Below, one piece after another: positions 1,301 to 36,274 of a stretch of 38,211 nucleotides of DNA. Location: IMG/VR virus record IMGVR_UViG_2695420600_000008. One strand, written 5' to 3'. The position numbers and the translations under genes were made by a program. The notes below the pieces were generated by a model that saw only the letters and a program-made list of their open reading frames with translations, ran no database searches and was not told where the DNA came from. Source of the DNA: a virus. Its lineage: Duplodnaviria > Heunggongvirae > Uroviricota > Caudoviricetes. Every line of letters starts with the position of its first letter. Positions within the stretch are counted from its first letter, which is position 1.

Positions 1301-1457
1301 CTGCTCCCTCCCTGTGTGGCATGGTCGCATGTGCGTGCGGAGGGGGTTACTGCTTTTTGTTGTCGCCGTGGCGGGAGAATGGCGCAGGGGTGAGATTACG
1401 CGCGTGGTGGGTGATGATTGTTGCCGAATCATTTAACGGATACAAGGGGTTGAAGCT

Positions 1458-2642
1458 ATGAGTGAAACTCGTTTTCATGGTGCCCGTGTTACGGAAAATA
1501 CCGACCTGGTAACAGCGATTAACGATGTTGATTCCAGCGTTATCGGTATCGTGGCAACGGCGGATGATGCGGACGCGGAGCTGTTCCCGCTGAACAAGCC
1601 CACACTGCTGCCCCGCGTCAATGACGTGCTGGGAAAATGCGGAACAACGGGGACGCTTTATCGTGCGCTTAAGGCCATCGCAGACCAGGTGAGCACAAAG
1701 GTGATCGTCGTTCGCGTGGCTGAACACAAAGAAGAAGACGGAAAAACGCAGGATCAACTGGTTATCGGTGGTTCTGAATCTGACGGCAGCTATACGGGGA
1801 TGTATGCGCTGCTTGTTGCAGAGCAGGATGAAAGCATCGGATACCGTCCGCGTATTCTGGCCGCGCCGGAGCTGGACACGGAGGCGGTGACAAAATCCCT
1901 GTGCGTGATTGCGGGTAAACTGCGCGCGTTTGTGTATGCCTCATGTCATGACTGTAACACGATGGCTGAGGCAATTACCTACCGCCAGAAATTCAACGAA
2001 CGTGAGGTGATGCTCTTATGGCCGGACTTCATCGCCTACAACCCGAAAAGTGGCAAAAACGAAACGTTCCCCGCGCCTGCCTATGCGTGCGGCCTTCGTG
2101 CGTACATTGACCATGAGCAGGGCTGGCACAAATCGCTGTCCAACGTTCCGGTTAAAAATGTGCTGGGGATGTCCAGGCATGTGTTCTGGTCGTTGCAGGC
2201 CGAAGACAGTGATGCCAACAGCCTCAACAACAAAGAAATCACGACCATTATTCGTCGCAACGGGTTCCGCTTCTGGGGCAACCGCACACCGGAAACGAAC
2301 GCCTACATCTTTGAGGTGTATACCCGAACCGCACAGGTGCTGGCTGATTCAATTGCGGAAGCGCAGTTTGAAACCATCGACAGTCCACTGACGCCTGCGA
2401 ACGTGAAGGATGTTATCGGTGCCATCAGGGCAAAACTGGATTCACTGGTTACTGCCGGGAAACTGATTGGGGCGTCGTGCTGGTATGACGTGGTGGATAA
2501 CGGCACCACGAATTTACGTCAGGGGCGCGTGCGTATTCGCTACAAATATACGCCTGTTCCCCCGCTGGAAGACATGGAGCTTTACCAGTCGTTTACTGAT
2601 GAATTCTTTGGTCCCGCATTTGCGGTGCTGGGAGGTGCCTGA
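1458..2642 (+). CDS. FI: contractile tail sheath protein (P2 gpFI-like)
   Basis: 394-aa ORF; C-terminal motifs WPDF...GLRA.IDHEQGWHK.LSNV...RRNGFRFWGNRT...YTRTAQV...YTPVPPLE match my recollection of P2 FI; followed directly by the tube gene. Confidence 0.85.
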   Translation: MSETRFHGARVTENTDLVTAINDVDSSVIGIVATADDADAELFPLNKPTLLPRVNDVLGKCGTTGTLYRALKAIADQVSTKVIVVRVAEHKEEDGKTQDQLVIGGSESDGSYTGMYALLVAEQDESIGYRPRILAAPELDTEAVTKSLCVIAGKLRAFVYASCHDCNTMAEAITYRQKFNEREVMLLWPDFIAYNPKSGKNETFPAPAYACGLRAYIDHEQGWHKSLSNVPVKNVLGMSRHVFWSLQAEDSDANSLNNKEITTIIRRNGFRFWGNRTPETNAYIFEVYTRTAQVLADSIAEAQFETIDSPLTPANVKDVIGAIRAKLDSLVTAGKLIGASCWYDVVDNGTTNLRQGRVRIRYKYTPVPPLEDMELYQSFTDEFFGPAFAVLGGA

Positions 2643-3154
2643 TGGCTGTACCAAAACATCTTCGCTTTTTTACGCTGTTTGTGGATGGTGAAAACGAAGT
2701 GGGTAAGGTGACGTCCGTCACTCTGCCTAAGCTGACGCGCAAAACCGACAGCTACCGGGGTGGTGGCATGATGGGAGCGGTAAGTATTGATCTCGGCCTG
2801 GATGACTCCGCGCTTGATGCGAGCTTTGTCATGGGGGGCGCAGTTCGTGAGCTGTTCCTTAAGTATGGCGGCACGATTGACGGTACGCTGCTGCGTTTTG
2901 CGGGTGAATACTACACCGACGCTGAAAGCGACCTGTATGAAGTCGAAATGCGCGGACGTGTGACGGAAATTGATATGGGGGAAGCCAAACAGGGCGAAGC
3001 CACATCACACACTTACGCCATTAAAAACACCTACTACAAGCTGAGTGTTAACGATCGCCCGTTGTGGGAGATTGACCTGCTGAACTTCATTTACCGGAAG
3101 GACGGCAGGGACATTGTGCCCGATCGCATCCGTTCCGCGCTCGGGCTTGGCTGA
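2642..3154 (+). CDS. FII: tail tube protein (P2 gpFII-like)
   Basis: 170-aa ORF; N-terminal F.LFVDG...VTLPKLTRK...YRGGGM resembles P2 FII; start overlaps FI stop. Confidence 0.85.
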   Translation: MAVPKHLRFFTLFVDGENEVGKVTSVTLPKLTRKTDSYRGGGMMGAVSIDLGLDDSALDASFVMGGAVRELFLKYGGTIDGTLLRFAGEYYTDAESDLYEVEMRGRVTEIDMGEAKQGEATSHTYAIKNTYYKLSVNDRPLWEIDLLNFIYRKDGRDIVPDRIRSALGLG

Positions 3155-3208
3155 TAAGTAATATGCAGGCGGCGCAGTGCGTCGCCTCTGACTGAAAGGA
3201 GTTTCCTG

Positions 3209-3574
3209 ATGAAAGAGACGAAAAACATCGATACCGAAAACACGGTCGTTGCTGACACTGTGAAAGAAACCAGTGAGCGTGGCGTAAAACTTACCCAACC
3301 AATTGAGCGAGGCGGCGAAAAAATCACGTATGTGGAGATCACCGGGGCTATTGAGCAGGCTGGATCTCTGCGAGATTTGTCGCTGTCTGATGTGCTGAAT
3401 TTGAAAGCGGAATCCATGTTTACGCTGCTGTCACGCGTGACATCACCGCGACTGGATGAAGTGACGATCAAAAAAATGGCATCCCGTGACTTTATTCAGT
3501 TATGTGTGGTTGCCGTAAATTTTTTGAGCGGTGCGGACTCTGGCGAGAAGAACGAACAGGCGACGGAAGCCTGA
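3209..3574 (+). CDS. E: tail assembly chaperone gpE
   Basis: 121-aa ORF between tube and tape measure; contains slippery heptamer TTTTTTG (3520..3526) near its 3' end with an overlapping -1 frame ORF (3502..3738). Confidence 0.75.
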   Translation: MKETKNIDTENTVVADTVKETSERGVKLTQPIERGGEKITYVEITGAIEQAGSLRDLSLSDVLNLKAESMFTLLSRVTSPRLDEVTIKKMASRDFIQLCVVAVNFLSGADSGEKNEQATEA

Positions 3575-3738
3575 TCACGGTTGTGTGCTTTGAGCACATA
3601 GAAGACTTTGTGGCGGATATTGCCGCCATTTTTAACTGGTCGCCCGCCGAAATCTTCATGATGACGCCCGGCGAAGTGGTTAGCTGGCGTGAGCGGGCGG
3701 CACTTCGCAGCGGGAATGCAGACAATGAAGACTCTTGA
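3209..3738 (+). CDS. gpE+E' fusion produced by programmed -1 translational frameshift
   Basis: E frame reads aat-ttt-ttg (N F L) across 3518..3526; the -1 frame reads ttt-ttt-gag and stays open to the stop at 3736..3738. Same arrangement as the P2 E/E' frameshift as I recall it. Confidence 0.65.
3520..3526 (+). other. slippery heptamer TTTTTTG (E/E' -1 frameshift site)
   Basis: Sequence read directly; sits at the overlap of the E and E' reading frames. Confidence 0.65.
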
Positions 3739-6532
3739 TATCCGGGTCGCTTTCAGCGCCGTTGACAGGCTGACCCGGCCTGCCGAAAACGCCCGCCGCC
3801 TGATGGGGCAGTTTGGTGACTCCATCCAGCGAACGCAGGGGGCGATCAAAAATCTCGAGCGTCAGGCGCGTTCATTTGAGCGCGCCCGTGACGCTGTCAG
3901 TAAAGCGGATGCGGGCATCGTGAAAGCACGACGCCAGCTTAACGCCCTTAATCAGTTACAACGCACGGGTACAGTGCTCAGCGAAAAACAACAAAAGCTG
4001 ATGCAGCAGTTAAGCACCCGGCTTGAACGCCTGAATGAATCGCGCACACGGGAAATTCAGAAAATGCGGGAACTTGGCGGAGAGCTGAAACGCCACGGCA
4101 TTTCCCTGACAGGCAGCGATAACACCATCCAGCAGGCCATCAGACGCACCGGACAATACAACAACCAGCTTGAACGCGAACGGCGGGCGCTTGCGCGTGT
4201 AACGCAGGCGCGTGAGCGGTATTCACGCGCGCAGGAAACAGCGGGAAAACTGAAAACAGGTGGTGCGCTGGCAACAGGTGCGGCGGCAGCGGGCGGCTAT
4301 GCTGCCGGGCGTTTTTTGCAGCCCGCTATCGGGTTCGGGAAAGAGATGTCCCGTGTTCAGGCACTGACGCGAATCGATAAAAACAGCCCGCAGTTTAAGG
4401 CGCTGCGTGAGCAGGCGTTAAAACTTGGCTCTGAAACGCAGTTCACCGCAGGCGATGCCGCCAGTGGACAGGCATTTCTTGCAATGGCTGGTTTCACACC
4501 GCAGGCCATTCAGGCTGCGCTTCCCGGCGTGCTGAGCATGGCAACGGCTGGCGGTATGGACCTCGGCGAGACGGCGGATATTGGTTCCAATATCCTGACG
4601 CAGTTCGGCCTCTCTGCTGACCAGATGGACCGGGTCGGTGACACACTTACCGCAGCGTTTACCCGTACCAACACTGACCTTCGCGCACTGGGCGAAACCA
4701 TGAAATATGCAGGTCCGGTGGCGGGTAAGCTGGGAATATCGCTGGAGCAGGCCGCAGCGATGGCGGGCGTGCTGGCGAAGATGGGTATCAGGGGGAGTGA
4801 TGCAGGTACAGCGTTGCGTAAAAGCCTGGCCAATCTGTCATCACCGCCAAAGGCAGCGGCAGAAGCACTGAAAGAGCTGGGGGTGTCAGTTGCTGACGCC
4901 AAAGGCAAAATGCGCCCGATGGAGAATGTGCTGGCCGATCTCTATAAAGCCACCCGCAAATACGGGGAGGTTGACCGGGTATCGTTCTTTAAGGACATTG
5001 CCGGAGAAGAGGCTTTCACATCATTTATGGGCCTCGTTGATGCGGCAGGTGACGGCTTCTTAGCCAAACTGAGAAAAGAACTTGAAGGCGCGCGCGGTGA
5101 GGCAGAACGCACGGCAAAGGTTATGGCCAATAACCTTGATGGCAACCTGAAATCACTCGGCAGTGCATGGGAAGGTCTGCGTATTCGCATCAGTGATCTG
5201 GTTGACGGTCCGCTGCGTTCTGTCACGCAGTGGCTCACGCGGGTTGTCTCAAAGGTGACGGCGCTGGCGCAGGCCCACCCGGCACTGACGCGCCAGTTAC
5301 TGATAGCGGGAGGCGCACTGCTGGCGACAACAGCAACGGTTGGTTCGTTGTCTCTGGTTATTGGGGTGCTTCACGGGAAGCTGGCTACGTTGCGTCTCGG
5401 TTTTTCTCTCCTGACCGAATCAATGAATGTTGTCAGGGTTCTGCCTGCATTATGGGGAATGGTGACGGGTTCCGTTTCTTTACTTGGTGGCGCTATCGGG
5501 GCGCTGTTCAGTCCGGTTAGTCTTATCGTGGCTGCGCTTGCCGGAGCTGCCGTTCTTATCTGGAAATACTGGGATCCCATCAGGGCATTTTTTGCCGGGG
5601 TGTTCAGCGGGATTATGGAAAGGCTGACCCCGTTGCGCGAAACCTTTGAACGGTTTGGCCCTGTTTTTGATGTCGTGCGCGATGGGATTATTCAGGTCTT
5701 TAACTGGTTTAAATCGCTGCTGTCACCGATGGAGTCCAGCAAGGAAACGCTGGATAAATGTGCCAGTGCTGGCGAGATATTCGGTAACGTTCTTGGCGGT
5801 GCGTTACAACTTGTTCTGACACCTGCAAAAATGCTACTGGATACGCTGGCGTGGATACTTGAAAAACTTGGCGTCCTTCCGGATGAAGCGGAAAGGGCGC
5901 GCAAGAAAATCGAAGACGCACAGCGTGCGGCCATTCTTCAGGACAAGGTTGCCTTGCTTCAGGGGGACCTGGCGAAAATCAATCCGCCGAAGCCTGTGGA
6001 AAATGGCAATGGCACCGGAGGTGATAAACCCAAAGACAACAAACCGCTCACAGACAGCAATACCGGGACGCTACGCAGACTCAGCAAAATTGCTGATAAC
6101 ACAGGTAAGCTGGTTGATGAGACGAAAAAACGCATTGGCCCCGGCGATATTGTCTTTAAGAACCTGCCCCGCGCACTTGCTGTTCGTGGGGAGTGGCAGG
6201 AGCGGAAGATTGCGCAGGTCAGTAAGCCTGCCCCCGCAATTAATATCACACCCGTGGTCCCGGCTCCGCTGCCTCCGGCGCTGGTCCCTGTTGTTGCGGC
6301 CAGCTCCCGCCCGGTGGCGGAGGCCATACGCTCTCCAGTGGCATCAGTTCCTGTAACTTCCCGTAACCGGGAGCCTGTTGCCTCCGGATTTGGTGGTGAA
6401 ATTCATGTTCATCTGCATAACGTTGTTACGCAGAATCCCCGCGAACTGGCGAAACTGGTCGGTGAAATGGTCAGGGCAGAAATGGAACGGCGCGCCCGTG
6501 CCGGGCGTGGCAGTTTTTACGATAAAGATTGA
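3716..6532 (+). CDS. T: tail tape measure protein (P2 gpT-like)
   Basis: Long ORF (3689..6532); alternative starts GTG 3689, ATG 3716, ATG 3725. Ala/Gly-rich central region, hydrophobic segment LLIAGGALLATTATVGSLSLVIGVL, positioned after E/E'. Confidence 0.85.
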   Translation: MQTMKTLDIRVAFSAVDRLTRPAENARRLMGQFGDSIQRTQGAIKNLERQARSFERARDAVSKADAGIVKARRQLNALNQLQRTGTVLSEKQQKLMQQLSTRLERLNESRTREIQKMRELGGELKRHGISLTGSDNTIQQAIRRTGQYNNQLERERRALARVTQARERYSRAQETAGKLKTGGALATGAAAAGGYAAGRFLQPAIGFGKEMSRVQALTRIDKNSPQFKALREQALKLGSETQFTAGDAASGQAFLAMAGFTPQAIQAALPGVLSMATAGGMDLGETADIGSNILTQFGLSADQMDRVGDTLTAAFTRTNTDLRALGETMKYAGPVAGKLGISLEQAAAMAGVLAKMGIRGSDAGTALRKSLANLSSPPKAAAEALKELGVSVADAKGKMRPMENVLADLYKATRKYGEVDRVSFFKDIAGEEAFTSFMGLVDAAGDGFLAKLRKELEGARGEAERTAKVMANNLDGNLKSLGSAWEGLRIRISDLVDGPLRSVTQWLTRVVSKVTALAQAHPALTRQLLIAGGALLATTATVGSLSLVIGVLHGKLATLRLGFSLLTESMNVVRVLPALWGMVTGSVSLLGGAIGALFSPVSLIVAALAGAAVLIWKYWDPIRAFFAGVFSGIMERLTPLRETFERFGPVFDVVRDGIIQVFNWFKSLLSPMESSKETLDKCASAGEIFGNVLGGALQLVLTPAKMLLDTLAWILEKLGVLPDEAERARKKIEDAQRAAILQDKVALLQGDLAKINPPKPVENGNGTGGDKPKDNKPLTDSNTGTLRRLSKIADNTGKLVDETKKRIGPGDIVFKNLPRALAVRGEWQERKIAQVSKPAPAINITPVVPAPLPPALVPVVAASSRPVAEAIRSPVASVPVTSRNREPVASGFGGEIHVHLHNVVTQNPRELAKLVGEMVRAEMERRARAGRGSFYDKD

Positions 6533-6538
6533 GGAGTC

Positions 6539-7033
6539 ATGGCCATGATGATGATCTACGGCATGTTTGTTTTTGAGCTGCGTACATTGCCGCATCAGCA
6601 GTTACAGCAAAACAAAAGCTGGCGGCATGTGAAAAATGAACGCGTTAACCGTTCGGCAAGCTGGCAGTATATCGGTGCAGGTGATGAGCGCATCGTTCTT
6701 TCTGGTGTGCTTTATCCTGAAATTACAGGTGGCGAAGTGTCGCTGTCGCTGCTGACCACGCAGGCGTATACAGGACGACCCTGGCCTCTGATTGATGGCG
6801 TCGGGCAGATTTACGGCATGTATGTCCTGACCGAAACGAATACGACCCGCTCCGAGTTTGATCGCTACGGTAAGGCGAAAAAGATAGAATTTTCACTGAC
6901 TCTTGAACGCTGTGATGAGGATTTGCGGGAGCGCCTGCAATCCTCATCGTTCAGCGATATGCTGTCCGGCTTCAAAGATAAGGTAACATCATCCCTTAAC
7001 AGCGCGGCCAGTTCAGTTAAAGGGTTGTTCTGA
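6539..7033 (+). CDS. U: tail protein gpU
   Basis: 164-aa ORF; GAGGAG Shine-Dalgarno upstream; motifs FVF.L.T.P.Q.LQ...SWRH and LSG.L.PE.TGG resemble P2 gpU. Confidence 0.8.
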   Translation: MAMMMIYGMFVFELRTLPHQQLQQNKSWRHVKNERVNRSASWQYIGAGDERIVLSGVLYPEITGGEVSLSLLTTQAYTGRPWPLIDGVGQIYGMYVLTETNTTRSEFDRYGKAKKIEFSLTLERCDEDLRERLQSSSFSDMLSGFKDKVTSSLNSAASSVKGLF

Positions 7034-7068: not shown

Positions 7069-7656
7069 TTATTTTGTTTCCTGACTCTTCTCTATTGTTC
7101 CGATTGATTCTCCTGCGGGGTGGTAACGATAAATCGTCGATATACCAATGCCGTAAATTATTGCCAGTTGTTTTCTGTCGTGCCCGTTTTTGATCAGCCT
7201 TGCTATTTGCTCATGCTGTTCTTTTGTCAGCTTCGGTCGACGTCCGCCTGTGCGCCCCCGTGCGCGTGCTGCCGCCAGTCCGGCCAGTGTACGTTCAACA
7301 ATTAATTCACGTTCCATTTCAGCCAGGGCACCCATCACGTGGAAGAAAAAACGCCCCATTGGAGAAGATGTATCTATGCTGTCGGTCAGACTGCGAAAAT
7401 TAATTCCTCGCTCCCGTAGTTCCCCGACGAGAGAAATCAGATGTTTCATGCTTCGCCCGAGGCGATCCAGTTTCCAGACAACCAGCGTGTCACCTTTTTG
7501 AAGGCGCTTTAAAGCGCGTTTTAATCCCGGTCGGTCTGTCTTTGTCCCGCTTAATTTATCTTCAAATATTTGTTCACATCCTGCACAAACAAGAGCGTTT
7601 CGTTGCAGGTCTGTATTCTGGTCATTTGTTGATACCCTTACATAGCCAATCAGCAC
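7069..7656 (-). CDS. serine DNA invertase (Gin/Cin/Pin/Hin family)
   Basis: ORF 7069..7674 (-); likely GTG start at 7656 giving MLIGYVRVSTNDQNTDLQRNAL..., the canonical N-terminus of Gin-family invertases with the catalytic serine in the VSTNDQ motif; GGGAG SD upstream; C-terminal helix-turn-helix (GISTIYRY). Confidence 0.9.
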   Translation of the reverse strand: MLIGYVRVSTNDQNTDLQRNALVCAGCEQIFEDKLSGTKTDRPGLKRALKRLQKGDTLVVWKLDRLGRSMKHLISLVGELRERGINFRSLTDSIDTSSPMGRFFFHVMGALAEMERELIVERTLAGLAAARARGRTGGRRPKLTKEQHEQIARLIKNGHDRKQLAIIYGIGISTIYRYHPAGESIGTIEKSQETK

Positions 7657-7683
7657 GCTGAATCTCCCGTCCAAAAGCGCAAA

Positions 7684-7744
7684 TCATGCCATGCAGGCCG
7701 GAAACGGCCATTATCTAAAACCTCGGTTTACAGGAAACGGTAAA
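7684..7744. repeat. left arm of 61-bp perfect inverted repeat (pairs with 10778..10838)
   Basis: Reverse complement of 7684..7744 is identical to 10778..10838; contains the 26-bp gix-like site plus a 27-bp outer flank. Confidence 0.9.
7711..7736 (+). other. gix/hix-like 26-bp invertase crossover site 1 (TTATCTAAAACCTCGGTTTACAGGAA)
   Basis: Differs at one position from the Mu gix sequence as I recall it (TTATCCAAAACCTCGGTTTACAGGAA); central TC dinucleotide at 7723..7724. Confidence 0.85.
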
Positions 7745-8747
7745 CAAGGCTGGTAACGCCGTGCAAAAAAATGGCGATACGTTGTCCGGTGGACTTACTT
7801 TTGAAAACGACTCAATCCTTGCCTGGATTCGAAATACTGACTGGGCAAAGATTGGGTTTAAAAATAATTCGGATGCAGACACCGATTCCTACATGTGGTT
7901 TGAAACAGGCAACAACGGCAATGAATATTTCAAATGGAGACACCGCATCATTGGCACCCGGCCTAAAGACCTGATGAATCTTAAATGGAATGCTTTGTCT
8001 GTTCTTGTTGAAGCCCTTTTCAGCAGTGAAGTGAAAATATCGACAGTCAATGCACTGAGGATATTTAATTCATCTTTTGGTGCCATTTTTCGTCGTTCTG
8101 AAGAATGCCTGCATATCATCCCTACACGAGAGAATGAAGGGGAAAATGGTAATATAGGGCCACTACGCCCCTTTACGCTTAATCTCAGAACTGGCCGGAT
8201 AAGCATGGGGCATGGTCTTGATGTTACAGGGGATATATTTGCAAACCGTTTTGCAATTAACAGTAGTACCGGCATGTGGATTCATATGCGTGACCAGAAT
8301 GTTATTTTGGGACGTAATGCGGTATCCACTGATGGTGCTCAGGCTTTGCTCCGTCAGGACCATGCCGACCGCAAATTTATGATTGGCGGTCTGGGAAATA
8401 AGCAATTTGGCATCTACATGATTAATAACTCAAGGACAGCCAATGGCACCGATGGTCAGGCGTACATGGATAATAACGGGAACTGGCTTTGCGGCTCGCA
8501 AGTTATTCCCGGCAACTATGGCAATTTTGATTCCAGATATGTGAAAGATGTTCGACTTGGTTCACAGCAATATTATGGAGTGAACAACTGGCAAACATGG
8601 AATTTTCAGTGCCCGTCAGGCTATGTACTGACGGGGATTAACGTACAGGATACCGGAAAAAACTCTGCCGATAATATTGCAGGCGTTCATTACAGGCCAG
8701 TGCAAAAGTATATAAATGGCACTTGGTATAATGTGGCGAGTATTTAA
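7737..8747 (+). CDS. tail fibre C-terminal variable cassette Sv' (no start of its own; expressed only after inversion fuses it to H)
   Basis: Frame is open from crossover site 1 through ORF 7761..8747; encodes [46 protein letters not shown]...YVKDVRLG...[11 protein letters not shown], which matches the C-terminal portion of P2 gpH as I recall it. Confidence 0.8.
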
Positions 8748-8748
8748 T

Positions 8749-9276
8749 ATGATGCACTTAAAGAACATAAAAGCAGGTAATGCTAAAACAGTGGAGCAGT
8801 ATGAGTTAACAAAGAAGCACGGAGTCATCTGGCTTTACTCTGAGGACGGAAAAAACTGGTATGAGGAAGTGAAGAACTTTCAGCCAGACACAATAAAGAT
8901 TGTTTACGATGCAAATAATATTATTGTCGCCATCACCAAAGATGCCTCCACGCTTAACCCTGAAGGTTATAGCGTCGTTGAGGTTCCTGATATTACAGCT
9001 AATCGTCGTGCTGATGATTCCGGTAAGTGGATGTTTAAGGACGGAGCTGTGGTTAAACGGATTTATACGGCTGACGAACAGCAACAACAGGCCGAATCAC
9101 AAAAGGCCGCATTGCTTTCCGAAGCTGAATCAGTCATCCAGCCGCTGGAACGCGCTGTCAGGCTGAATATGGCGACGGACGAGGAACGCACACGACTGGA
9201 AGCATGGGAACGCTACAGTGTTCTGGTCAGCCGTGTGGATACGGCAAAGCCAGAATGGCCACAAAAGCCTGAGTAA
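8749..9276 (+). CDS. tail fibre assembly protein (tfa, P2 G / Mu U family) paired with cassette Sv'
   Basis: ORF 8716..9276; start ATG 8749 directly after the Sv' stop; [11 protein letters not shown]...[13 protein letters not shown]... typical Tfa N-terminus. Confidence 0.85.
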
Positions 9277-9282
9277 AAATTA

Positions 9283-9302
9283 AGGCCCGATATCGGGCCT
9301 TG
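9283..9302. terminator. bidirectional terminator hairpin between convergent tfa genes
   Basis: aaggcccgatatcgggcctt perfect hairpin with a flanking T-run. Confidence 0.55.
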
Positions 9303-9304
9303 TT

Positions 9305-9838
9305 TCATTCTGGTTGTTCGGGAAACGTTACTGGCAGGCTGGAGGTGTCTGTGGATTCAACCTTCTGCGCATAGAGCATCCACTCGGTTAATTTTTGTTT
9401 ATTCTCGTCGGAAATAATGCCCAGCCGTAGCTGTGAGTCCCATAGCTGGGTTTTATCCCTGACGAGCTGTAGCAGGCTTTGCTTTTCATTTTCCGCTTGT
9501 TGCCTCTGCTCTTCCCCGGTATAAGTTCGCTTTATCACTACGCCATCTTTGAACATCCATTTACCTGAAATATCAGCCCGGCGATTTGCTGTAATATCAG
9601 GAACCTCAACGACGCTTGCGCCTTCCGGATTAATTGCTGAAACATCCTTTTCAATACAAATAATAACGCCGTTGTGGTCATAGACCATTTTCAACGTATC
9701 AGGCTGAAAGTTCTTTTGTTCCTCATACCAGTTTTTCCCATCCTCTGTATAAAGCCATTTGATGTTAAATTGTTTCGTTAGCTGGTATTGCTCTTTTGTT
9801 TCAGGATTACCAGCAGAAATGTTTTTTAAGTGCATCAT
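9305..9838 (-). CDS. tail fibre assembly protein (tfa) paired with cassette Sv
   Basis: 177 aa; [40 protein letters not shown]...; paralogous to 8749..9276. Confidence 0.85.
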   Translation of the reverse strand: MMHLKNISAGNPETKEQYQLTKQFNIKWLYTEDGKNWYEEQKNFQPDTLKMVYDHNGVIICIEKDVSAINPEGASVVEVPDITANRRADISGKWMFKDGVVIKRTYTGEEQRQQAENEKQSLLQLVRDKTQLWDSQLRLGIISDENKQKLTEWMLYAQKVESTDTSSLPVTFPEQPE

Positions 9839-9840
9839 CG

Positions 9841-10785
9841 TTAAATACTCCCCGCGTTATACCACGTCCCATTAATGCAATACTGAATTGGCCTTGCCTG
9901 AGTTGTATCAATTAGTTCATCTCTGTTTGAGTTAACGGAACCGGTAACAACATAACCTGACCTGTCAGACCATCCGGGACCATTCCATGTCTGAACAGAT
10001 AACAGACCACCAAGGCGAATACCTGTAATAAACCTTGAGTTACATTCTGCCTGCGTATATGCACCAACATCTCCCGCAGAGGGTTTGCGGGTTGTGGTGT
10101 AAAACTCTGACCAGTCAGCTTCAAAGCCATAACCATCACGCGCTGAACGATAAAAAATACCGCCGTTCCTGTAATTCACGCGGAACTGTACAGCAGGGCA
10201 GCTCCCCGTATTCATATTGAAGTGGAGGATTAATGTCGATGCGCCACCAATGTTTGCGTTATAGACCCCGCTATTCCAGTTCCAGCCAACAGCTTTATCA
10301 TTTCCGACAGTGCTTCCTGTTTGCCCTAAAGCAAATGCAGGTTGTTGATTTTTCGTGTTGTAGTCTCGTCGCCAGCCAGGAGCGTAAGCATCACCATGAT
10401 TAATATAAGTGAATTGAGCGTTAGTAATTCCGCCACCGCTGGACGTGCTCGGCGTGGTAACGCGTATGGTCATTGCGCCGCGAGTGCCAATAACTTCCAC
10501 CACAGCACCTGCAAGACAAATATTTCCGCAACCTGTATCTGTAATGACCTTATTATTTGCATAAGCCCATGAGCCTTTGCACATCCAGTAAGGATGGTTA
10601 AATGCTCCCTGACTCTCCAGCCACGAAATAAATTGCGCGGTTGTCCAGACCTGACTATCGCCACCAATATTCAGCCATGAGCTATATGCGCGGCAGGCAC
10701 CAATATTTTTGGTGAAGGTATCTTTCCCCGGAATATCTGCGCCGTTCTGGTTTTTCTGTAATGCGCCAGAAGCCTGATTTACCGT
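9841..10785 (-). CDS. tail fibre C-terminal variable cassette Sv (start-less, in frame with crossover site 2)
   Basis: ORF 9841..10584 stays open upstream to site 2 (…[27 protein letters not shown]…); ends INGTWYNAGSI like cassette Sv'. Confidence 0.8.
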   Translation of the reverse strand, partial: TVNQASGALQKNQNGADIPGKDTFTKNIGACRAYSSWLNIGGDSQVWTTAQFISWLESQGAFNHPYWMCKGSWAYANNKVITDTGCGNICLAGAVVEVIGTRGAMTIRVTTPSTSSGGGITNAQFTYINHGDAYAPGWRRDYNTKNQQPAFALGQTGSTVGNDKAVGWNWNSGVYNANIGGASTLILHFNMNTGSCPAVQFRVNYRNGGIFYRSARDGYGFEADWSEFYTTTRKPSAGDVGAYTQAECNSRFITGIRLGGLLSVQTWNGPGWSDRSGYVVTGSVNSNRDELIDTTQARPIQYCINGTWYNAGSI

Positions 10786-10838
10786 TTCCTGTAAACCGAG
10801 GTTTTAGATAATGGCCGTTTCCGGCCTGCATGGCATGA
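10778..10838. repeat. right arm of 61-bp inverted repeat (pairs with 7684..7744)
   Basis: Perfect reverse-complement identity to 7684..7744. Confidence 0.9.
10786..10811 (-). other. gix-like crossover site 2 (exact reverse complement of site 1)
   Basis: TTCCTGTAAACCGAGGTTTTAGATAA read directly. Confidence 0.85.
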
Positions 10839-10841
10839 CTA

Positions 10842-11994
10842 AATAGCTGCGCTTAATACCGCTACACTTTTGCCAGCCCATGTTTGCCTCCGGGGAATGG
10901 GCTGACGGTTTCCATAAAATGGCGAACTTTTTTCAACAGTTGCCACATTGAGCTGCACTGATGATTACGCGTTATTGTGTCGTGAAGTGCCTGCCATAGC
11001 CGTTCAACATGATTCACCCATGGCGAGTAAACCGGCTGATAAATGACCCTGAACTTCGGGTTCTCCTTCAGCCAGCTCTGTGTTTCCCGGCTTTTGTGGA
11101 TAATGTAGTTGTCCACGATCAGCGTGATGGTTTTCGCCCGACGGTATGTCGCTTTAAGCCGCTTCAGCAGGCTGATGAACAGCGCCGAACTTTTGCTGTT
11201 GCCGCCCACACAGCTGACTTTACCTGTCCCGCTGTGCAGCGCTCCGGCCAGATAATATTTTTCATTCTGTCCCGGCGTGACCACCCGTTTTTGCTGTCCG
11301 CGCAGTTGCCAGTCCGCACCGATTTTGGGATTAAGATGGATATCCACTTCATCTTCATAAAAGACCGGATGCTCTGCGCTGCATTCGTCCAGTGCTTTAT
11401 GGATTGCTGCCATCTTTTCATCTTTATGCGGGTCACGGATACGCAGAGTTGGCGCAGCCCTTCGCCACACAATCCCCGCAGACGGCAACCAGCGGCGAAC
11501 GGTTCCGGCATTTAACTGGCAACCGGTTATCTCATTGATTTTTATTGCCAGCAGTTCTGTACTCCAGCGTGAACGCTGGTAGCCAAAGTCGCCGGGAGAA
11601 TGTTTTACCAGCTCACGTAACAGTGTGCAGATATGCTCAAACGGCCAGCGACGGGCACGCCCGGCAGGTAATGATTTCAGTCCCTCAACACCCGACTGCG
11701 TGAACCAGTTAATCCAGCGTCCAACAGAGGAACGGGCGCAGCAGAGCGTTCTGGCAACGTCGCTGACACGGTCGCCCCGGTGCAGCATCAGCATGGCAGT
11801 CAGTCTGCGGGCATAATTTTTATCGTGTGTTTTATGGATGGCTTTCTGCATCAGGCGTCGTTCGTCACGGGAAATTGGTGCTATGATCGGCATTGCTCAG
11901 TCCGGTTGGTGATTTGTTTTGATTTGGCGATTGATCAGATCGCACAATCCGGGCTAAGTTCCCTCAAAGTGATCTACTATTCCGCGCAGCTATT
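10842..11994 (-). mobile_element. complete IS630 insertion sequence (1153 bp) with TA target duplication in a CTAG site
   Basis: Element length 1153 bp; flanked by C-TA (10839..10841) and TA-G (11995..11997), the expected IS630 CTAG/TA signature; imperfect terminal inverted repeats starting aatagctgcgc; encodes a 343-aa transposase. Confidence 0.9.
10862..11893 (-). CDS. IS630 transposase (IS630/Tc1-mariner superfamily DDE transposase)
   Basis: 343-aa ORF wholly inside the element; size and position match IS630 transposase. Confidence 0.9.
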   Translation of the reverse strand: MPIIAPISRDERRLMQKAIHKTHDKNYARRLTAMLMLHRGDRVSDVARTLCCARSSVGRWINWFTQSGVEGLKSLPAGRARRWPFEHICTLLRELVKHSPGDFGYQRSRWSTELLAIKINEITGCQLNAGTVRRWLPSAGIVWRRAAPTLRIRDPHKDEKMAAIHKALDECSAEHPVFYEDEVDIHLNPKIGADWQLRGQQKRVVTPGQNEKYYLAGALHSGTGKVSCVGGNSKSSALFISLLKRLKATYRRAKTITLIVDNYIIHKSRETQSWLKENPKFRVIYQPVYSPWVNHVERLWQALHDTITRNHQCSSMWQLLKKVRHFMETVSPFPGGKHGLAKV

Positions 11995-13284
11995 TAGACC
12001 TCCTTTAATTTTGGCCCCGTGGCTGACAGATATAGCACCTGTTCTCAGATTTATAGCGAATGGCCTTAATGGGCCGATATTACCGTTTTCGCCTTGTCCT
12101 TCAGCCGTCGGAATGAAATGAAGAAAATCTTCTGAACGACGGAAAATTAGACCGAAGGTATCATTGAAAATTCGCAGCGCATTCACCGTGCCAATTTTCA
12201 GTTCTCCGGTCATTTTATCGCCGGAACGCTGAACGGCGTTACCAGCCTTGTTTACCGTTTCCTGTAAACCGAGGTATTCGATAACGGCAGCAACGGTCGA
12301 TTTCGCAAGAATATCCCGCCCGACTTTTGTCAGGGTTGCCAGGCTGGCGACATCATTCCCCGTAAAATACGGAAACCTGTCTGCCGCAGTAGCAAGCCCC
12401 GCCAGCGCCGTCAGAGTGGCATCTTTCGGTTGCTTACCCGCAAGCGCGTTAGTCATGGTGGTCGCAAAATTCGGGTCGTTGCCCAGCGCCGCCGCCAGCT
12501 CGTTCAGTGTGTTCAGTGCATCAGGCGAAGAGTCTACAAGTGCGGCAATCGCAGCCATAACGAAAGCCGTGCTTGCGATTTGGGTATTATTCGTTCCCTG
12601 TCGCGCAGTTGGTGTTGTTGGCGTTCCGGTCAGTGCCGGGCTGTTTAATGGGGCTTTCTTGTTCGTTTCATCCATTACTGCCTTAACGGCTTTTGGTGTC
12701 GCTGCCAGCGTTTCAGACGTGCTGTTGGTGGCGTTGCTGAGCTGGACAAGGCCTTTTGCGGTCAGCGAGGCGTCCGGGTGACGTCGTGACTGTTCATGCT
12801 CTTTCAGTTTGTCATCCACGTAATTCACTGTGGCCATCACCATGGTGTTATCCACGGTAAGCGCCACAGTGGCAGTGCTGGATACGGTCAGAATGGTGCG
12901 AAATGTTTGTGCACGTCCGGATCCTTCGGCAACGGTTGGCTTGTAACTTTCGGCAGTATTGCCTACCGCGATCAAATCGCCGTGCTCATCAAACACACCA
13001 ATTTCCCGGATCCAGAATCCGCCCGTTTCAGGAGGAATAACCAGCTCCGCAATAATGTGGTTCTGATGTGTTGCGTCCAGGGTGACGCGATTAACGGTAT
13101 GTCGCCACACCTCATGCACAAGACGGGTCTGCTTACTGTCTGGCGTGGGTAAAGTACCGCCGCCGTCACCCACGGCCATATGTGTCAGGCGGACAGGTTT
13201 CCCATCTGGCGCGGTTGCCTGCGCTAATTTTTTTGCACCCGTATCGGTGATAATGGTTTTAAATTTTCGTGTTGTGGTACTCAT
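11977..13284 (-). CDS. H: tail fibre protein gpH: constant N-terminal part fused in the current orientation to a truncated third cassette and terminated inside IS630 (functionally truncated fibre)
   Basis: 435-aa ORF; N-terminal ~330 aa resemble P2 gpH (…TAKGLVQLSNATNSTSETLAATPKAVK…AAVIEYLGLQETV); after crossover site 3 it encodes a collagen-like stub (…[22 protein letters not shown]…GAKIKGG) and then reads LNSCAE-stop from IS630 sequence. Confidence 0.8.
   Translation of the reverse strand: MSTTTRKFKTIITDTGAKKLAQATAPDGKPVRLTHMAVGDGGGTLPTPDSKQTRLVHEVWRHTVNRVTLDATHQNHIIAELVIPPETGGFWIREIGVFDEHGDLIAVGNTAESYKPTVAEGSGRAQTFRTILTVSSTATVALTVDNTMVMATVNYVDDKLKEHEQSRRHPDASLTAKGLVQLSNATNSTSETLAATPKAVKAVMDETNKKAPLNSPALTGTPTTPTARQGTNNTQIASTAFVMAAIAALVDSSPDALNTLNELAAALGNDPNFATTMTNALAGKQPKDATLTALAGLATAADRFPYFTGNDVASLATLTKVGRDILAKSTVAAVIEYLGLQETVNKAGNAVQRSGDKMTGELKIGTVNALRIFNDTFGLIFRRSEDFLHFIPTAEGQGENGNIGPLRPFAINLRTGAISVSHGAKIKGGLNSCAE
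12259..12284 (-). other. gix-like crossover site 3 (TTATCGAATACCTCGGTTTACAGGAA on the coding strand), in-frame junction of constant H
   Basis: Two mismatches to sites 1/2 (TCGAAT vs TCTAAA); unlike sites 1 and 2 it has no in-frame TAA, so H reads through it; 12233..12275 is also the reverse complement of the inner flank of site 1. Confidence 0.8.
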
Positions 13285-26428: not shown

Positions 26429-27388
26429 TTACTCCTTGTCCATTGCGTACAGCCCATTAACCAGAGCAAACTGTGGCACCCCGTCCGCGATGAAAGTCGC
26501 ATTAACTCCGCAGGCTTCGCGGATAGCGGGTGCCACAATCTCCGCCCCTCCACCGACAACCATCACCCGCCCGTAACCCGAAAAACCCGCCAGCGCGCGG
26601 ATCACGCGTTGTTTCAGTGTTTCTTCCTTTTCACGAATAACCGCCATCAGGCTGGCGTAATGCGCGTCATTGTGGATGTGCTGGCGCAGCCAGGCTTCAT
26701 CATGGCGATGTTCGATAATGGTATTGGCGATGTGGTGACTGGTGCGCATACCGTTAGTGGCCATCACCGACAGTACGGCATCGGCCATCAGAGAAACGCC
26801 TACGTGTGGATCGCAAAACACCTGGCTGATACCTGCCAGTTGCCCCTGAACCTTTGCCACATCCAGCGTGGTTCCGCCCAAATCCACAATCAGCAGGGAT
26901 TCAAACGGACTCATGTCAGCCAGTGCCTTAAAGCCAGCCGGAATGGATTCAGGCATAACCCGCACGTTACGGATAGTGAATGCTTCGCCGTTCTGGTACT
27001 CCACCGGGCGCATAACGTTCGCTTTTTTGCGGTTGATGTTGGCCATGTCCGGCTGTGCGTTTGTGTCGAAATACTCGCTCAGTGGCAGGGTGACAACCAC
27101 ATCCACCTCCTGTGGCGTGATGCCTGATTTGACCAGCGCGTGATGAATGGCAATGACATTTACATCGCTGTACTGGTATTGCGTGTCGGTTGTCTGGACA
27201 AAGCGATCGCTGACCGGATCAAAACCATAGCGCACGCCATCAAGCATGTAGTTCGCGGGCTGCATGCCACCGAACGGCGCAGACCATTCCGACTTGAAGC
27301 TGTTCGGGCTGATGGCGTTGCGGCGTTCGCCGTTCTCAGTCCATGCCAGCTTGATGTTGGTGGAGCCGTCGTCGATACAAATTTTCAT
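26429..27388 (-). CDS. parM: ParM/StbA-like actin-type plasmid segregation ATPase
   Basis: 319 aa; MKICIDDGSTNIKLAW…ISPNSF…YSDVNVIAIHHAL…VMPESIPAG…LIVDLGGTTLDV…GVSL…VVGGGAEI strongly resembles R1 ParM including the actin-fold phosphate loops. Confidence 0.8.
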   Translation of the reverse strand: MKICIDDGSTNIKLAWTENGERRNAISPNSFKSEWSAPFGGMQPANYMLDGVRYGFDPVSDRFVQTTDTQYQYSDVNVIAIHHALVKSGITPQEVDVVVTLPLSEYFDTNAQPDMANINRKKANVMRPVEYQNGEAFTIRNVRVMPESIPAGFKALADMSPFESLLIVDLGGTTLDVAKVQGQLAGISQVFCDPHVGVSLMADAVLSVMATNGMRTSHHIANTIIEHRHDEAWLRQHIHNDAHYASLMAVIREKEETLKQRVIRALAGFSGYGRVMVVGGGAEIVAPAIREACGVNATFIADGVPQFALVNGLYAMDKE

Positions 27389-32721: not shown

Positions 32722-33033
32722 ATGTCAATAGAGATATCAAAGAAGCTAAAAGCAATTCGAGAATCTGAGGGGCTTAGTCAGGCAAAGTTCGCGGATTCAA
32801 TAGGTATTGCGGTTGGTACGGTTAAGCAATACGAGACTGGTATTCGAGGTGTGGGAACGGAGGTTTTACTGAAAATCACAATGCACCCGGAATTTAAAAA
32901 ATACACTACGTGGTTGATGAGTAACGAAACAAATGAGGCTGCTGGGCAGATCAGTCCTTCTCTCTCCCCTGATGGGCCAGAAAACACATCGTCTTCTCAA
33001 AAATCCCGCAAGACTGGCACACAGCCCGGCTAA
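32722..33033 (+). CDS. C: P2 C-type immunity repressor
   Basis: ORF 32620..33033; preferred start ATG 32722 giving 103 aa; helix-turn-helix LSQAKFADSIGIAVGTVKQYETG and the C-terminal …FKKYTTWLMSNE…GQISP… pattern resemble P2 C. Confidence 0.75.
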   Translation: MSIEISKKLKAIRESEGLSQAKFADSIGIAVGTVKQYETGIRGVGTEVLLKITMHPEFKKYTTWLMSNETNEAAGQISPSLSPDGPENTSSSQKSRKTGTQPG

Positions 33034-33082: not shown

Positions 33083-34060
33083 ATGAGCATAAAATCAATT
33101 CCGGGAGGGTATCTTCTTGACATGCGTCCTGAGGGGCGTAAAGGCAAACGCATTCGCAAAAAATTTAAAACGAAATCGGATGCAGTTTTATATGAGCGGT
33201 GGGTGCTGGCGCAACAGCATAACAATGAGTGGAAAGGAAACTCCATTGATCGCCGTCCGCTGTCAGTGCTTATTGACTTGTGGTGGAAATACCACGGCCA
33301 GCTAATGAAGTCAGGGCATAACACGCGCCTTAAATTGCTGCGCTTGAGTGAGGCAATGGATGACCCGTGCGTGCATAAACTTAATACAACGATGCTCACC
33401 GAGCTACGTGTGTCCAGGATAGAGCAGGGGATACAGCCCAGCACCATAAATCGAGAGATTGGGGCGTTAAGCGCGATGTTTACCGCACTCATCTCATCCG
33501 GCCATTTTCTTAACGATAACCCCGTTCAAGGCCTTAAAGGAATGAAGGTTAACGAGCGTGAAATGGGATATCTGAGTAAGTCTGAATGTGTTCAGTTGCT
33601 GGATGCACTGGCTGAAAATCCCGATGAACGGCTGGCCGTCGAAATCCTTCTGTCGACCGGGGCGCGATGGGGCGAGGTAGCGGCACTGGAGCAGCGCCGT
33701 GTTCTTCATTGTCGAATCACTTTTTCAAAAACGAAGAACAGCAAAAACCGTACCGTTCCTATTTCTGAAAGCCTGTTTGAAAAGATCAAAAAACGGGGCG
33801 GGAAACTGGTGTTTCCGACGCTGGATTATTCATTGGTTCGCGATGTCATCAAAACGGTCGCACCTGATGTTCCTGACGGCCAGGCTGTTCATGCGCTGCG
33901 CCACACCTTCGCCAGTCATTTCATGATGAACGGCGGCAATATTCTGACGCTCCAGAAAATTCTGGGGCACGCAAAGATTCAGACAACGATGATTTATGCC
34001 CATCTTGCGCCGGATTACTTGCAGGATGCGGTGAGGTTTAATCCCTTGGGAGGAATGTAA
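33083..34060 (+). CDS. int: P2-type integrase (tyrosine recombinase)
   Basis: ORF 32933..34060; preferred start 33083 (MSIKSIPGGYLLDMRPEGRKGKRIRKKF…), ~325 aa; C-terminal catalytic motifs LSTGARWGE, HALRHTFASHFMMNGG.ILTLQKILGH and MIYAHLAPDYLQDA (catalytic Tyr) match P2 Int. Confidence 0.9.
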   Translation: MSIKSIPGGYLLDMRPEGRKGKRIRKKFKTKSDAVLYERWVLAQQHNNEWKGNSIDRRPLSVLIDLWWKYHGQLMKSGHNTRLKLLRLSEAMDDPCVHKLNTTMLTELRVSRIEQGIQPSTINREIGALSAMFTALISSGHFLNDNPVQGLKGMKVNEREMGYLSKSECVQLLDALAENPDERLAVEILLSTGARWGEVAALEQRRVLHCRITFSKTKNSKNRTVPISESLFEKIKKRGGKLVFPTLDYSLVRDVIKTVAPDVPDGQAVHALRHTFASHFMMNGGNILTLQKILGHAKIQTTMIYAHLAPDYLQDAVRFNPLGGM

Positions 34061-34062
34061 CT

Positions 34063-34563
34063 ATGGAAATAAAAAAACCTACAAAAAAAGAGTTATATGA
34101 CTATTTACTATCGAAATATATAGAAGATAAATGCAAAGAAGAAGCTGATGAAATCAATAAGAAGTCGATGAGTCGTGTCAAAAAACATAAAGAGCGGCTG
34201 ATGGAGATTACGCCAGAAATCTTCTTCCGTTTCTTGTCTGAGAAGGGGGTCTCCAGTGTCTGCCCTTCATGTGGATCGTCGCGATTATCTGTTCCAGAAA
34301 GTATGGATCTTTGCTGGGATAAAAATAAGAAACCAGAAAATTTTAACAATCTACCCCTGGAGGAACAGAGTGAGTTAATTAAAGAGAACATAAAGCATTA
34401 TGTATCTTATGCTTTTTTGGGTGATGTTAAGAGCATACCTGATATGCGCAAAACTTATTACACGCTGCATTGCCTGAATTGTGGTTACCTGAGCCTTTAT
34501 CGTACGTCTGCGGTGCTGAAGTGGTTGGAGAAAGACAAAGCGCAGGATGGTGATAATGGGTAA
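34063..34563 (+). CDS. hypothetical zinc-ribbon protein (166 aa), AT-rich moron gene
   Basis: Low GC by eye; two CxxC pairs (CPSCGSS … CLNCGY); lysine/glutamate-rich N-terminus; no homologue recognised. Confidence 0.55.
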   Translation: MEIKKPTKKELYDYLLSKYIEDKCKEEADEINKKSMSRVKKHKERLMEITPEIFFRFLSEKGVSSVCPSCGSSRLSVPESMDLCWDKNKKPENFNNLPLEEQSELIKENIKHYVSYAFLGDVKSIPDMRKTYYTLHCLNCGYLSLYRTSAVLKWLEKDKAQDGDNG

Positions 34564-35101
34564 TGTAGCAAGAAATCTTTTCGGTAATTCAGCAGGTAGT
34601 GTGTCGCATTCTGAGCGTGATGTGCTTTATCATGGTGGCGATGGCGGCAGTAGTGGAGGCGGAATGTCAGATAAACTTGAAAGGCGAATTGAGCGGCTCG
34701 AAGGTGATTTATCGCTAACAAGAAACGACCTTGCGACGCTTGCTGAACGCACTACAAACCTCTCAACTAAAGCCGATGTTGGTGAGGTGAAAGGTGAACT
34801 CAAAGCAGACATAGCACATCTGAAAGGTGATCTTGAATGCGATATTGCGAATCTGAAAGGTGAGCTTAAATCTGATACAGCTAACCTGAAAGAGCAGCTC
34901 AAATCAGACATTAACAGCCTGAAGGGTGAGCTTACCGAAGCGATGGATAAACGCTTTGACAAGATTATGGATGAGATGAATCGGCGGTTTGACAAGGTTG
35001 ATGATAATACGAAGTGGCGTTGGAGTGGCATTATTGTGCCAGTGTGCACAACCATTTTCACAGCGGCGGTTGCTGTATTTGTTGCTAAATTTGTTGGCTG
35101 A
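34547..35101 (+). CDS. hypothetical tail-anchored coiled-coil membrane protein with five 11-residue repeats (184 aa)
   Basis: Repeats LKGELKADIAH / LKGDLECDIAN / LKGELKSDTAN / LKEQLKSDINS / LKGELTEAMDK; glycine-rich N-terminus; C-terminal transmembrane helix WSGIIVPVCTTIFTAAVAVFVAKFVG; overlaps the upstream gene by 17 nt. Confidence 0.55.
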   Translation: MVIMGNVARNLFGNSAGSVSHSERDVLYHGGDGGSSGGGMSDKLERRIERLEGDLSLTRNDLATLAERTTNLSTKADVGEVKGELKADIAHLKGDLECDIANLKGELKSDTANLKEQLKSDINSLKGELTEAMDKRFDKIMDEMNRRFDKVDDNTKWRWSGIIVPVCTTIFTAAVAVFVAKFVG

Positions 35102-35293
35102 TGATCCACAAATTGACCACATCTCTGTTATTTGTTGTGGTTGGCTGTGTTTTTGTGTGTCTGTAAGTCTTTGATAATTACCTAACTTATTGATTTTTGT
35201 TTGTGTTTATGGCCGCTCTGCGGCCTTTTTTCTTTTCACTGTCGAAGAGTCACCGTAAAATCAACGCCATGACACTTCAGCAGAACGGATACC

Positions 35294-36274
35294 ATGCTGA
35301 CACTTGCCCGCCAACAACAGCGACAAAATATTCGCTGGTTATTATGCCTGTCAGTTTTGATGCTGCTGGCGCTTCTCTTAAGCCTTTGCGCCGGTGAACA
35401 ATGGATTTCGCCAGGTGACTGGTTTACTCCTCGTGGCGAACTGTTCGTCTGGCAAATTCGCCTGCCACGTACGCTGGCTGTATTGCTGGTTGGTGCGGCG
35501 CTGGCTATATCCGGCGCTGTAATGCAGGCGTTGTTTGAAAATCCTCTGGCAGAACCTGGACTACTTGGCGTCTCTAACGGCGCAGGCGTGGGGCTTATCG
35601 CCGCGGTATTGCTTGGGCAAGGGCAACTCCCCAACTGGGCGCTAGGGCTGTGTGCGATTGCTGGCGCGCTTATCATCACTTTAATACTCTTACGTTTCGC
35701 CCGTCGTCATCTTTCGACCAGTCGGTTATTGCTGGCTGGCGTTGCATTAGGGATTATCTGTAGCGCACTAATGACGTGGGCTATCTACTTTTCCACCTCT
35801 GTTGATTTACGTCAGCTGATGTACTGGATGATGGGCGGTTTTGGCGGCGTAGACTGGCGGCAAAGCTGGCTGATGCTGGCATTGATCCCCGTGTTGTTGT
35901 GGATCTGTTGTCAGTCCAGGCCGATGAATATGTTAGCACTTGGCGAGATCTCGGCGCGGCAACTGGGTTTACCCCTGTGGTTCTGGCGCAATGTGCTGGT
36001 GGCAGCGACCGGCTGGATGGTTGGCGTCAGTGTGGCGCTGGCGGGTGCTATCGGCTTTATTGGTCTGGTGATCCCACATATTCTTCGGTTGTGTGGTTTA
36101 ACCGATCATCGCGTATTACTTCCCGGCTGCGCGCTGGCAGGGGCGAGCGCAGTGCTGCTGGCCGATATTGTAGCGCGCCTGGCATTAGCTGCCGCAGAGC
36201 TGCCTATTGGCGTGGTCACCGCAACGTTGGGTGCGCCGGTGTTTATCTGGTTATTGTTAAAAGCAGGACGTTAG
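35294..36274 (+). CDS. btuC: vitamin B12 ABC transporter permease BtuC
   Basis: 326 aa, [25 protein letters not shown]…, full-length match to E. coli BtuC as I know it. Confidence 0.95.

Follow-up and report, generated by a model that had tools for sequence, protein, structure and literature searches.

An attachment site of a P2-related prophage at the ihfA terminator of Escherichia coli

Considering that phage-like genes in the stretch of DNA analyzed in the current work (38,211 bp, hereafter the window) are followed by the bacterial gene btuC, the question was raised at which base the prophage ends and whether its presence alters the expression of the neighbouring host genes. The initial annotation had placed the last phage-like coding position at 35101 and the start of btuC at 35294, both of which are confirmed by the open reading frame coordinates, as the reading frame 34547..35101 closes with a TGA codon at 35099-35101. 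Within the intervening 192 bp it had noticed a GC hairpin followed by a T-run, which is indeed present and extends over 35211-35235, and it had expected the same interval to contain the attR site.

The position of the junction was derived from a comparison of genomes, and it is this comparison, not statistics on a single hairpin, that constitutes its proof. A 1-kb query covering the region matched every complete E. coli genome (5426/5426), the match starting at exactly 35211 in nearly all of them, and leftward of this position the window was matched by lysogens only. The junction is therefore located inside the 192-bp interval, and the hairpin represents the att core. Alignment to the prophage-free site, a check suggested in the initial annotation, sets the boundary at 35210/35211, so that, as judged from aligned sequences, phage DNA reaches up to 35210 while everything from 35211 rightwards is unchanged host DNA. 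The expectation of an attR site thus stood with regard to the junction and the interval; the hairpin and T-run, however, do not lie beside attR, being instead its 25-bp core, a host ihfA terminator that is duplicated by integration.

This 25-bp core is identical to the empty attB site of strain K-12 (L001 1501-1525) and is found as an exact copy at both attL and attR of the prophages of O26 RM8426 and EPEC E2348/69, and at attL of that of O111 RM9322. In these three lysogens, the ihfA side reads ...ctaactaaaaa-GGCCGCTCTGCGGCCTTTTTTCTTT-caataact..., after which phage DNA follows, and the btuC side reads ...gtgtttat-GGCCGCTCTGCGGCCTTTTTTCTTT-tcactgtc..., the flanks of the shared 25 bp differing at the very next base on either side. 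The window itself holds a single copy of the core; it starts inside the prophage next to gpD, with its own attL situated beyond the window, and the duplication is seen in the related lysogens. We consider it highly probable that positions 35102-35293 represent the attR site of a P88-like prophage, whose core recombined with the identical ihfA terminator in an essentially neutral insertion (features are listed in Table 1).

Table 1 Features of the right prophage end and the adjoining host DNA (positions in the window)
Feature	Position	Strand	Remarks
Immunity repressor, P2 C-type helix-turn-helix (HTH) protein	32722..33033	+	Pfam HTH_3 E = 1.1e-9; helix-turn-helix regulator in the RM8426 annotation; first gene of the rightward C-int-cargo string
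Tyrosine integrase of P2 type (325 aa), seemingly intact	33083..34060	+	Two Pfam domains exceed their cut-offs (Int_N 99.9 bits, Phage_integrase 71.4 bits); phrog_1 integrase
Cargo orf166, 166 aa	34063..34563	+	phrog_4293 (unknown function) E = 8e-23; starts 2 nt past the int stop codon; G+C 38-41%
Cargo ORF, coiled-coil with C-terminal hydrophobic segment, DUF1640-like	34547..35101	+	RefSeq start 34664; DUF1640 in the RM8426 annotation; phrog_9415 E = 4e-14
Integrase-proximal attP arm (phage DNA, phage side of attR)	35102..35210	+	109 bp; missing from 5120 empty sites; in 304 genomes it adjoins the sequence upstream of btuC
Two candidate phased Int arm-type direct repeats, 11 bp apart	TGTGGATC 35103-35110, TGTGGTCA 35114-35121	-	Match the P2-type consensus tgTGGaCa at 6/8 and 7/8 positions
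Two predicted IHF consensus sites	TATCAAAGACTTA 35164-35176, AATCAATAAGTTA 35183-35195	-	Consensus matches; between arm sites and core
att core	35211..35235	+	25 bp, GGCCGCTCTGCGGCCTTTTTTCTTT; identical to the intrinsic terminator of ihfA (and STnc540); stem-loop GGCCGC-TCT-GCGGCC 35211-35225, T-run TTTTTTCTTT 35226-35235
Candidate promoter-like site for btuCED	35233..35261	+	-35 TTTTCA 35233-35238, 17-nt spacer, -10 TAAAAT 35256-35261; 9/12 consensus matches
btuC (host)	35294..36274	+	Followed by btuE, btuD and nlpC

The assignment of the core to a host terminator follows from the layout of the empty site. The ihfA-btuC spacer of K-12 (100 bp) consists, downstream of the ihfA stop codon, of tctgatctaactaaaaa, the identical hairpin and T-run, and an identical 58 bp up to btuC; since this element is thus separated by 17 nt from the stop codon of ihfA and by 58 nt from btuC, it is the host ihfA Rho-independent terminator. 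Its form is that of an intrinsic terminator, with six G-C pairs and a 3-nt loop preceding the T-run, and a terminator scan returned it as the only clean plus-strand terminator-like site of the intergenic region. At attR, the folding energy of the hairpin is -11.6 kcal/mol (z = -2.8 versus shuffles) and the T-run is wholly kept (6 T, C, 4 T), the structural change being confined to the loss of the upstream A-tract: A:U pairs formed by this tract extend the attB stem to 11 bp (-16.7 kcal/mol), as opposed to the 6-bp stem at attR. Because of this loss, the efficiency of the attR terminator could differ from that of the native copy.

With regard to the mechanism, Int would exchange strands within the core with the help of IHF. 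The terminator is contained in full within the phage core and is hence doubled upon integration, so that at attL the native 3' end of ihfA, A-tract included, would be retained; the predicted order at attL is ihfA, TAA, tctgatctaactaaaaa, the 25-bp core and caataactgattg. The second copy would be placed by attR between the rightward phage genes and btuC, and the attP junction of the excised form is predicted to read ...gtgtttatGGCCGCTCTGCGGCCTTTTTTCTTTcaataact....

The 109-bp segment on the phage side of the core has the organization of an attP arm. It is conserved in FDAARGOS_401 and in E2348/69, whose adjacent cargo differs from that of the window, as is expected of a functional arm. The P2-type arm-site consensus is tgTGGaCa (PMC3448106); next to the two candidate repeats of Table 1, the other arm, as present at attL of RM8426, contains TGTGGACA, which matches the consensus at 8/8 positions in the same orientation. 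Given a background of 0.63 matches per kb with at most one mismatch, the assignment of these arm sites is suggestive only and statistically weak. Across the 38,211-bp window, the IHF consensus WATCAANNNNTTR is matched perfectly just twice (1.43 matches expected overall), both times within the arm; the attL arms of RM8426 and E2348/69 contain a third IHF consensus site, 3 nt past the core. We infer from these matches that the arm and IHF motifs would be bound by Int and IHF, respectively.

The integrase gene that faces this arm encodes a protein with 48.6-48.9% identity over its full length to the Int proteins of P2 and Wphi. The motifs ARWGE (194), HALRH (270), LGH (294) and IYAH (304), assigned by eye, appear to supply the catalytic Arg, His-x-x-Arg, His and Tyr residues. 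The plus strand between int and the core showed no promoter-like site, and the int stop codon is separated from the next ATG by 2 nt, for which reason the cargo ORFs are probably co-transcribed with C and int. The C-int-cargo string would thus probably be expressed as one transcript ending at the core, in the prophage as well as in the free phage. Searches of both cargo ORFs against PADLOC, Pfam and NCBIfam gave sub-threshold coiled-coil noise only: orf166 had no family above threshold in any of the three, and the DUF1640-like ORF scored 24.1 bits against the Pfam CCDC90-like model (cut-off 33.5), the corresponding PHROGs families being of unknown function. The slot between int and attP was observed to be a variable cargo locus. 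It is occupied by orf166 and the DUF1640-like membrane coiled-coil protein in the window (34063-35101) and in 38 genomes, as opposed to a single 131-aa protein (phrog_14142) in FDAARGOS_401 (L003 3609-4004) and E2348/69 (L005 45026-45421). The window cargo (34063-35101) is low in G+C, at 38-46%.

Use of the site was quantified across the same 5426 complete E. coli genomes. A 500-bp empty-site query found it uninterrupted in 5120 genomes, and a query composed of the arm, the core and the start of btuC retrieved an attR of the same type from 304, so that empty and occupied counts together cover all but 2 genomes. Essentially one att type therefore uses this site, in approximately 5.6% of complete E. 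coli genomes.

The host locus has a second identity, in that it scores as a member of the Rfam family STnc540 (RF02082). In Salmonella, STnc540 has been located in the himA-btuC interval (PMC2515195) and described as a ProQ-associated sRNA derived from the ihfA 3'UTR (PMC6315103). Against a gathering threshold of 38 bits, the empty K-12 site (L001 1425-1583) scores 67.4 bits and attL of RM8426 (L004 36368-36524) scores 43 bits; the host locus therefore belongs to the STnc540 family, with the att core as its terminator. The attR copy (window 35170-35293) scores 22.1 bits, below the threshold, and is consequently not an STnc540 gene. As a separate observation, the attL arm of RM8426 has, as its first 12 nt after the core, CAATAACTGATT, which is nearer to the Rfam STnc540 consensus following the T-run (CAAGUAaaggAU) than is the E. 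coli sequence (TCACTGTCGAAG); this likeness may have arisen by chance, or may go back to an attB site of a different enterobacterial host.

Several alternative explanations were weighed against the placement of the boundary and the neutrality of the insertion. If the phage ended where its coding ends, at 35101, then 35102-35210 would be a variable host intergenic segment, and this segment is non-coding and AT-rich, as many intergenic regions are. It is missing, however, from 5120 of the 5426 genomes, where the ihfA-btuC spacer measures 100 bp and ihfA stands directly left of the hairpin; it occurs solely together with the prophage, and its IHF and arm motifs are of the kind that an attP arm should have. 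A host origin of the segment is ruled out by the empty-site alignments and by its occurrence with the prophage only, and we accord it practically no probability. More weight is due to the idea that C-int-cargo transcription, expressed in the lysogen, passes attR and changes the expression of btuCED (vitamin B12 uptake), similar to the read-through from moron genes that the initial annotation had envisaged. The phage genes do face btuC, the core is the sole terminator-like site between the last stop codon and btuC, and the attR hairpin is shorter than that of attB, its A-tract having been lost. Transcription of int in P2-type lysogens is generally low, which counts against read-through. The hairpin and T-run are moreover entirely kept at attR, and even at the empty site btuC follows the pheST-ihfA transcription unit with this terminator in between. 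Integration has left the last 83 bp before btuC exactly as they are in the empty site; they comprise the promoter-like -35 and -10 elements together with 22 bp beyond the -35 hexamer. The promoter itself is a candidate only, since the consensus scan found 4 sites versus 2.3 in shuffles, and the literature searched offered no usable mapping of a btuCED promoter. In Salmonella, RNA-seq showed no read-through into btuC at the orthologous ihfA terminator, even though rewiring of the gene that precedes the terminator raised btuC mRNA slightly but significantly in spite of it (PMC8942017). With a canonical terminator copy still standing between the phage genes and btuC, and the sequence before btuC unchanged, the read-through idea is weakened, and we judge it unlikely. 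We infer that the insertion should be essentially neutral for ihfA and btuCED, a small effect on the latter being possible.

The remaining alternatives concern the RNA made across the site. A functional second terminator copy might endow phage transcripts with the STnc540 stem-loop and U-tail, thereby creating a ProQ-bound 3'UTR RNA that would compete with, or mimic, the host sRNA. This would agree with the score of the empty site, well above the STnc540 threshold (67.4 versus 38 bits), with the ProQ association and ihfA 3'UTR origin of STnc540 in Salmonella, and with the stability of the 3'UTR upstream of the attR hairpin, which exceeds that of shuffles (z = -2.76). The attR copy, however, at 22.1 bits, has just the terminator in common with STnc540, terminator hairpins are generic, and protein-binding sites, with their inverted and direct repeats, would account equally well for the structure within the arm; such a transcript is therefore quite improbable. 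A broader version, in which the target was chosen as an RNA 3' module (shared by the ihfA mRNA and STnc540) and the attR copy gives the C-int-cargo transcript a ProQ-recognized 3' end by which it enters the host ProQ network, would be marginally less probable again. If it were true, the terminator of an IHF-subunit gene would serve as attB for a system whose attP has three IHF consensus sites. The preferred reading remains that of an attR site at a duplicated terminator, with probably little or no harm to the host.

The prophage can be placed among known systems by means of its structural and integration modules. The region 700-2200 of the window was matched in one piece, at 97-98.5% identity, by P88, P884B11, PhiR44_2 and others; the divergent gpD/FI junction and the block FI-U, inverted relative to P2, are common to the structural module of P88 and Xuanwuvirus (Peduoviridae). 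Based on this gpD/FI junction, the prophage is a P88-like phage (Xuanwuvirus, a relative of P2) with a different integrase/att module. When int, cargo and arm were compared by megablast with 50,697 phage records, a weak Klebsiella integrase match was all that emerged, and the attR arm was found in none of these records. Integrases in phage records, including those of P88 and other Xuanwuvirus members, are at most 57% identical to that of the window and none of them is accompanied by the attR arm, meaning that this integrase/att module is represented by prophages only in the collections searched. The reconstructed attP junction (arm, core and other arm), searched as an exact pattern, was absent from IMG/VR and, at two pattern lengths, from metagenome contigs, an absence which does not equate to inactivity, and the attR and attL junction patterns had no matches among GTDB species representatives, which speaks neither for nor against use of the site outside E. 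coli.

The core, the attR arm and the gene order of the window recur in the prophages of E2348/69, RM8426 and RM9322. P2 and Wphi have the same integrase architecture (49% identity), with int downstream of the repressor and facing attP, and their recombination involves an attP with a core, two pairs of arm sites and an IHF site, acted on by Int, IHF and Cox; candidate tgTGGaCa-type arm repeats and predicted IHF sites likewise occur here, as consensus matches. Unlike in P2 and Wphi, two cargo genes are found here between int and attP. P2-type integrases direct integration into intergenic sites, not into tRNA genes (PMC3448106), as is also the case here, whereas P2 and Wphi use other chromosomal sites and the core and attB of the window differ from theirs (PMC3448106). 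The prophage can further be set beside phages that target the genes of structured RNAs. Phage 186 integrates in tRNA-Ile, and Fels-2 and SopE-phi integrate in ssrA, the 3' ends of these structured RNAs being reconstituted. As with these tRNA- and tmRNA-targeting phages, the 3' stem-loop of the targeted host RNA lies within the core, and the phage brings an identical replacement by which this RNA stays unaltered; unlike in 186, Fels-2 and SopE-phi, the target is the terminator hairpin of an mRNA and of a 3'UTR-derived sRNA, and the core is short (25 bp).

A number of observations were made elsewhere in the prophage. Across the leftmost 10 kb, identity of the window to the best-matching complete genomes is only approximately 95%, and these genomes diverge left of position 40. 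The reverse complement of positions 1-41 is TAGACTGGCCCCCTGAATCTCCAGACAACCAGTATCACTTA, which we take to resemble the terminal inverted repeat of IS2, and a query of positions 1-420 gave up to 41 matches per genome, plasmids included, with related prophages diverging left of 40; an IS copy is probably situated in the prophage just beyond the left end of the window. The tail genes FI-FII-E-T-U (1458-7033, plus strand) are inverted relative to gpD (191-1432, minus strand) and to the baseplate and fibre genes, unlike in P2. Inverted repeats flanking the FI-U tail block, as a cause of its inversion, were not found, and the arrangement is the same in P88 and Xuanwuvirus.

A serine recombinase (invertase) gene (7069-7674, minus strand) is part of a tail-fibre inversion system in 7069-12288, within which a repeat at 7684-7771 is inverted relative to 10751-10838 and 12230-12288, the repeats being complementary at 89-93%. 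Both strands carry alternative fibre C-termini and assembly genes, which suggests a multi-inversion host-range switch. The locus between gpD and ogr, situated left of the window, is also variable in cargo among equivalent prophages: a 500-aa PIN-domain protein is encoded in O26 (L004 33822-35324) and O111 (L006 4424-5926), and a 221-aa hypothetical protein in E2348/69 (L005 10096-10761). A Hok/Gef toxin gene adjoins attL in O26 RM8426, O111 RM9322 and E2348/69. Finally, ParM-like and partition/stability genes adjoin the replication endonuclease gene (window 26429-27388 and neighbours), as identified by correspondence with the RefSeq annotation of RM8426 (L004 9173-10448); partition genes are unusual for an integrating P2-like phage.

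The site has a published precedent. The genome paper of strain SE11 (Oshima et al. 2008) describes PP_SE11-4, a P2-like prophage of 35.8 kb located "between btuC and ihfA" and associated with a 25-nt duplication (PMC2608844); the prophages of E2348/69, RM8426 and RM9322 are its equivalents, the type measuring approximately 35-36 kb. Both the site and the length of the core were therefore already published, and the attR at the ihfA terminator is real, ordinary and already known. In the current work the boundary is fixed to the base, with phage DNA ending at 35210 and the core occupying 35211-35235, which has little weight beyond correct annotation. Integration should spare ihfA, its 3'UTR RNA and the btuCED promoter region, and the integrase/att pair, which has a 25-bp, single-copy and apparently neutral attB, could extend the set of orthogonal integration modules available for E. 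coli. That the core overlaps the STnc540 terminator adds a minor example to those att sites which fall on the 3' ends of structured RNAs.
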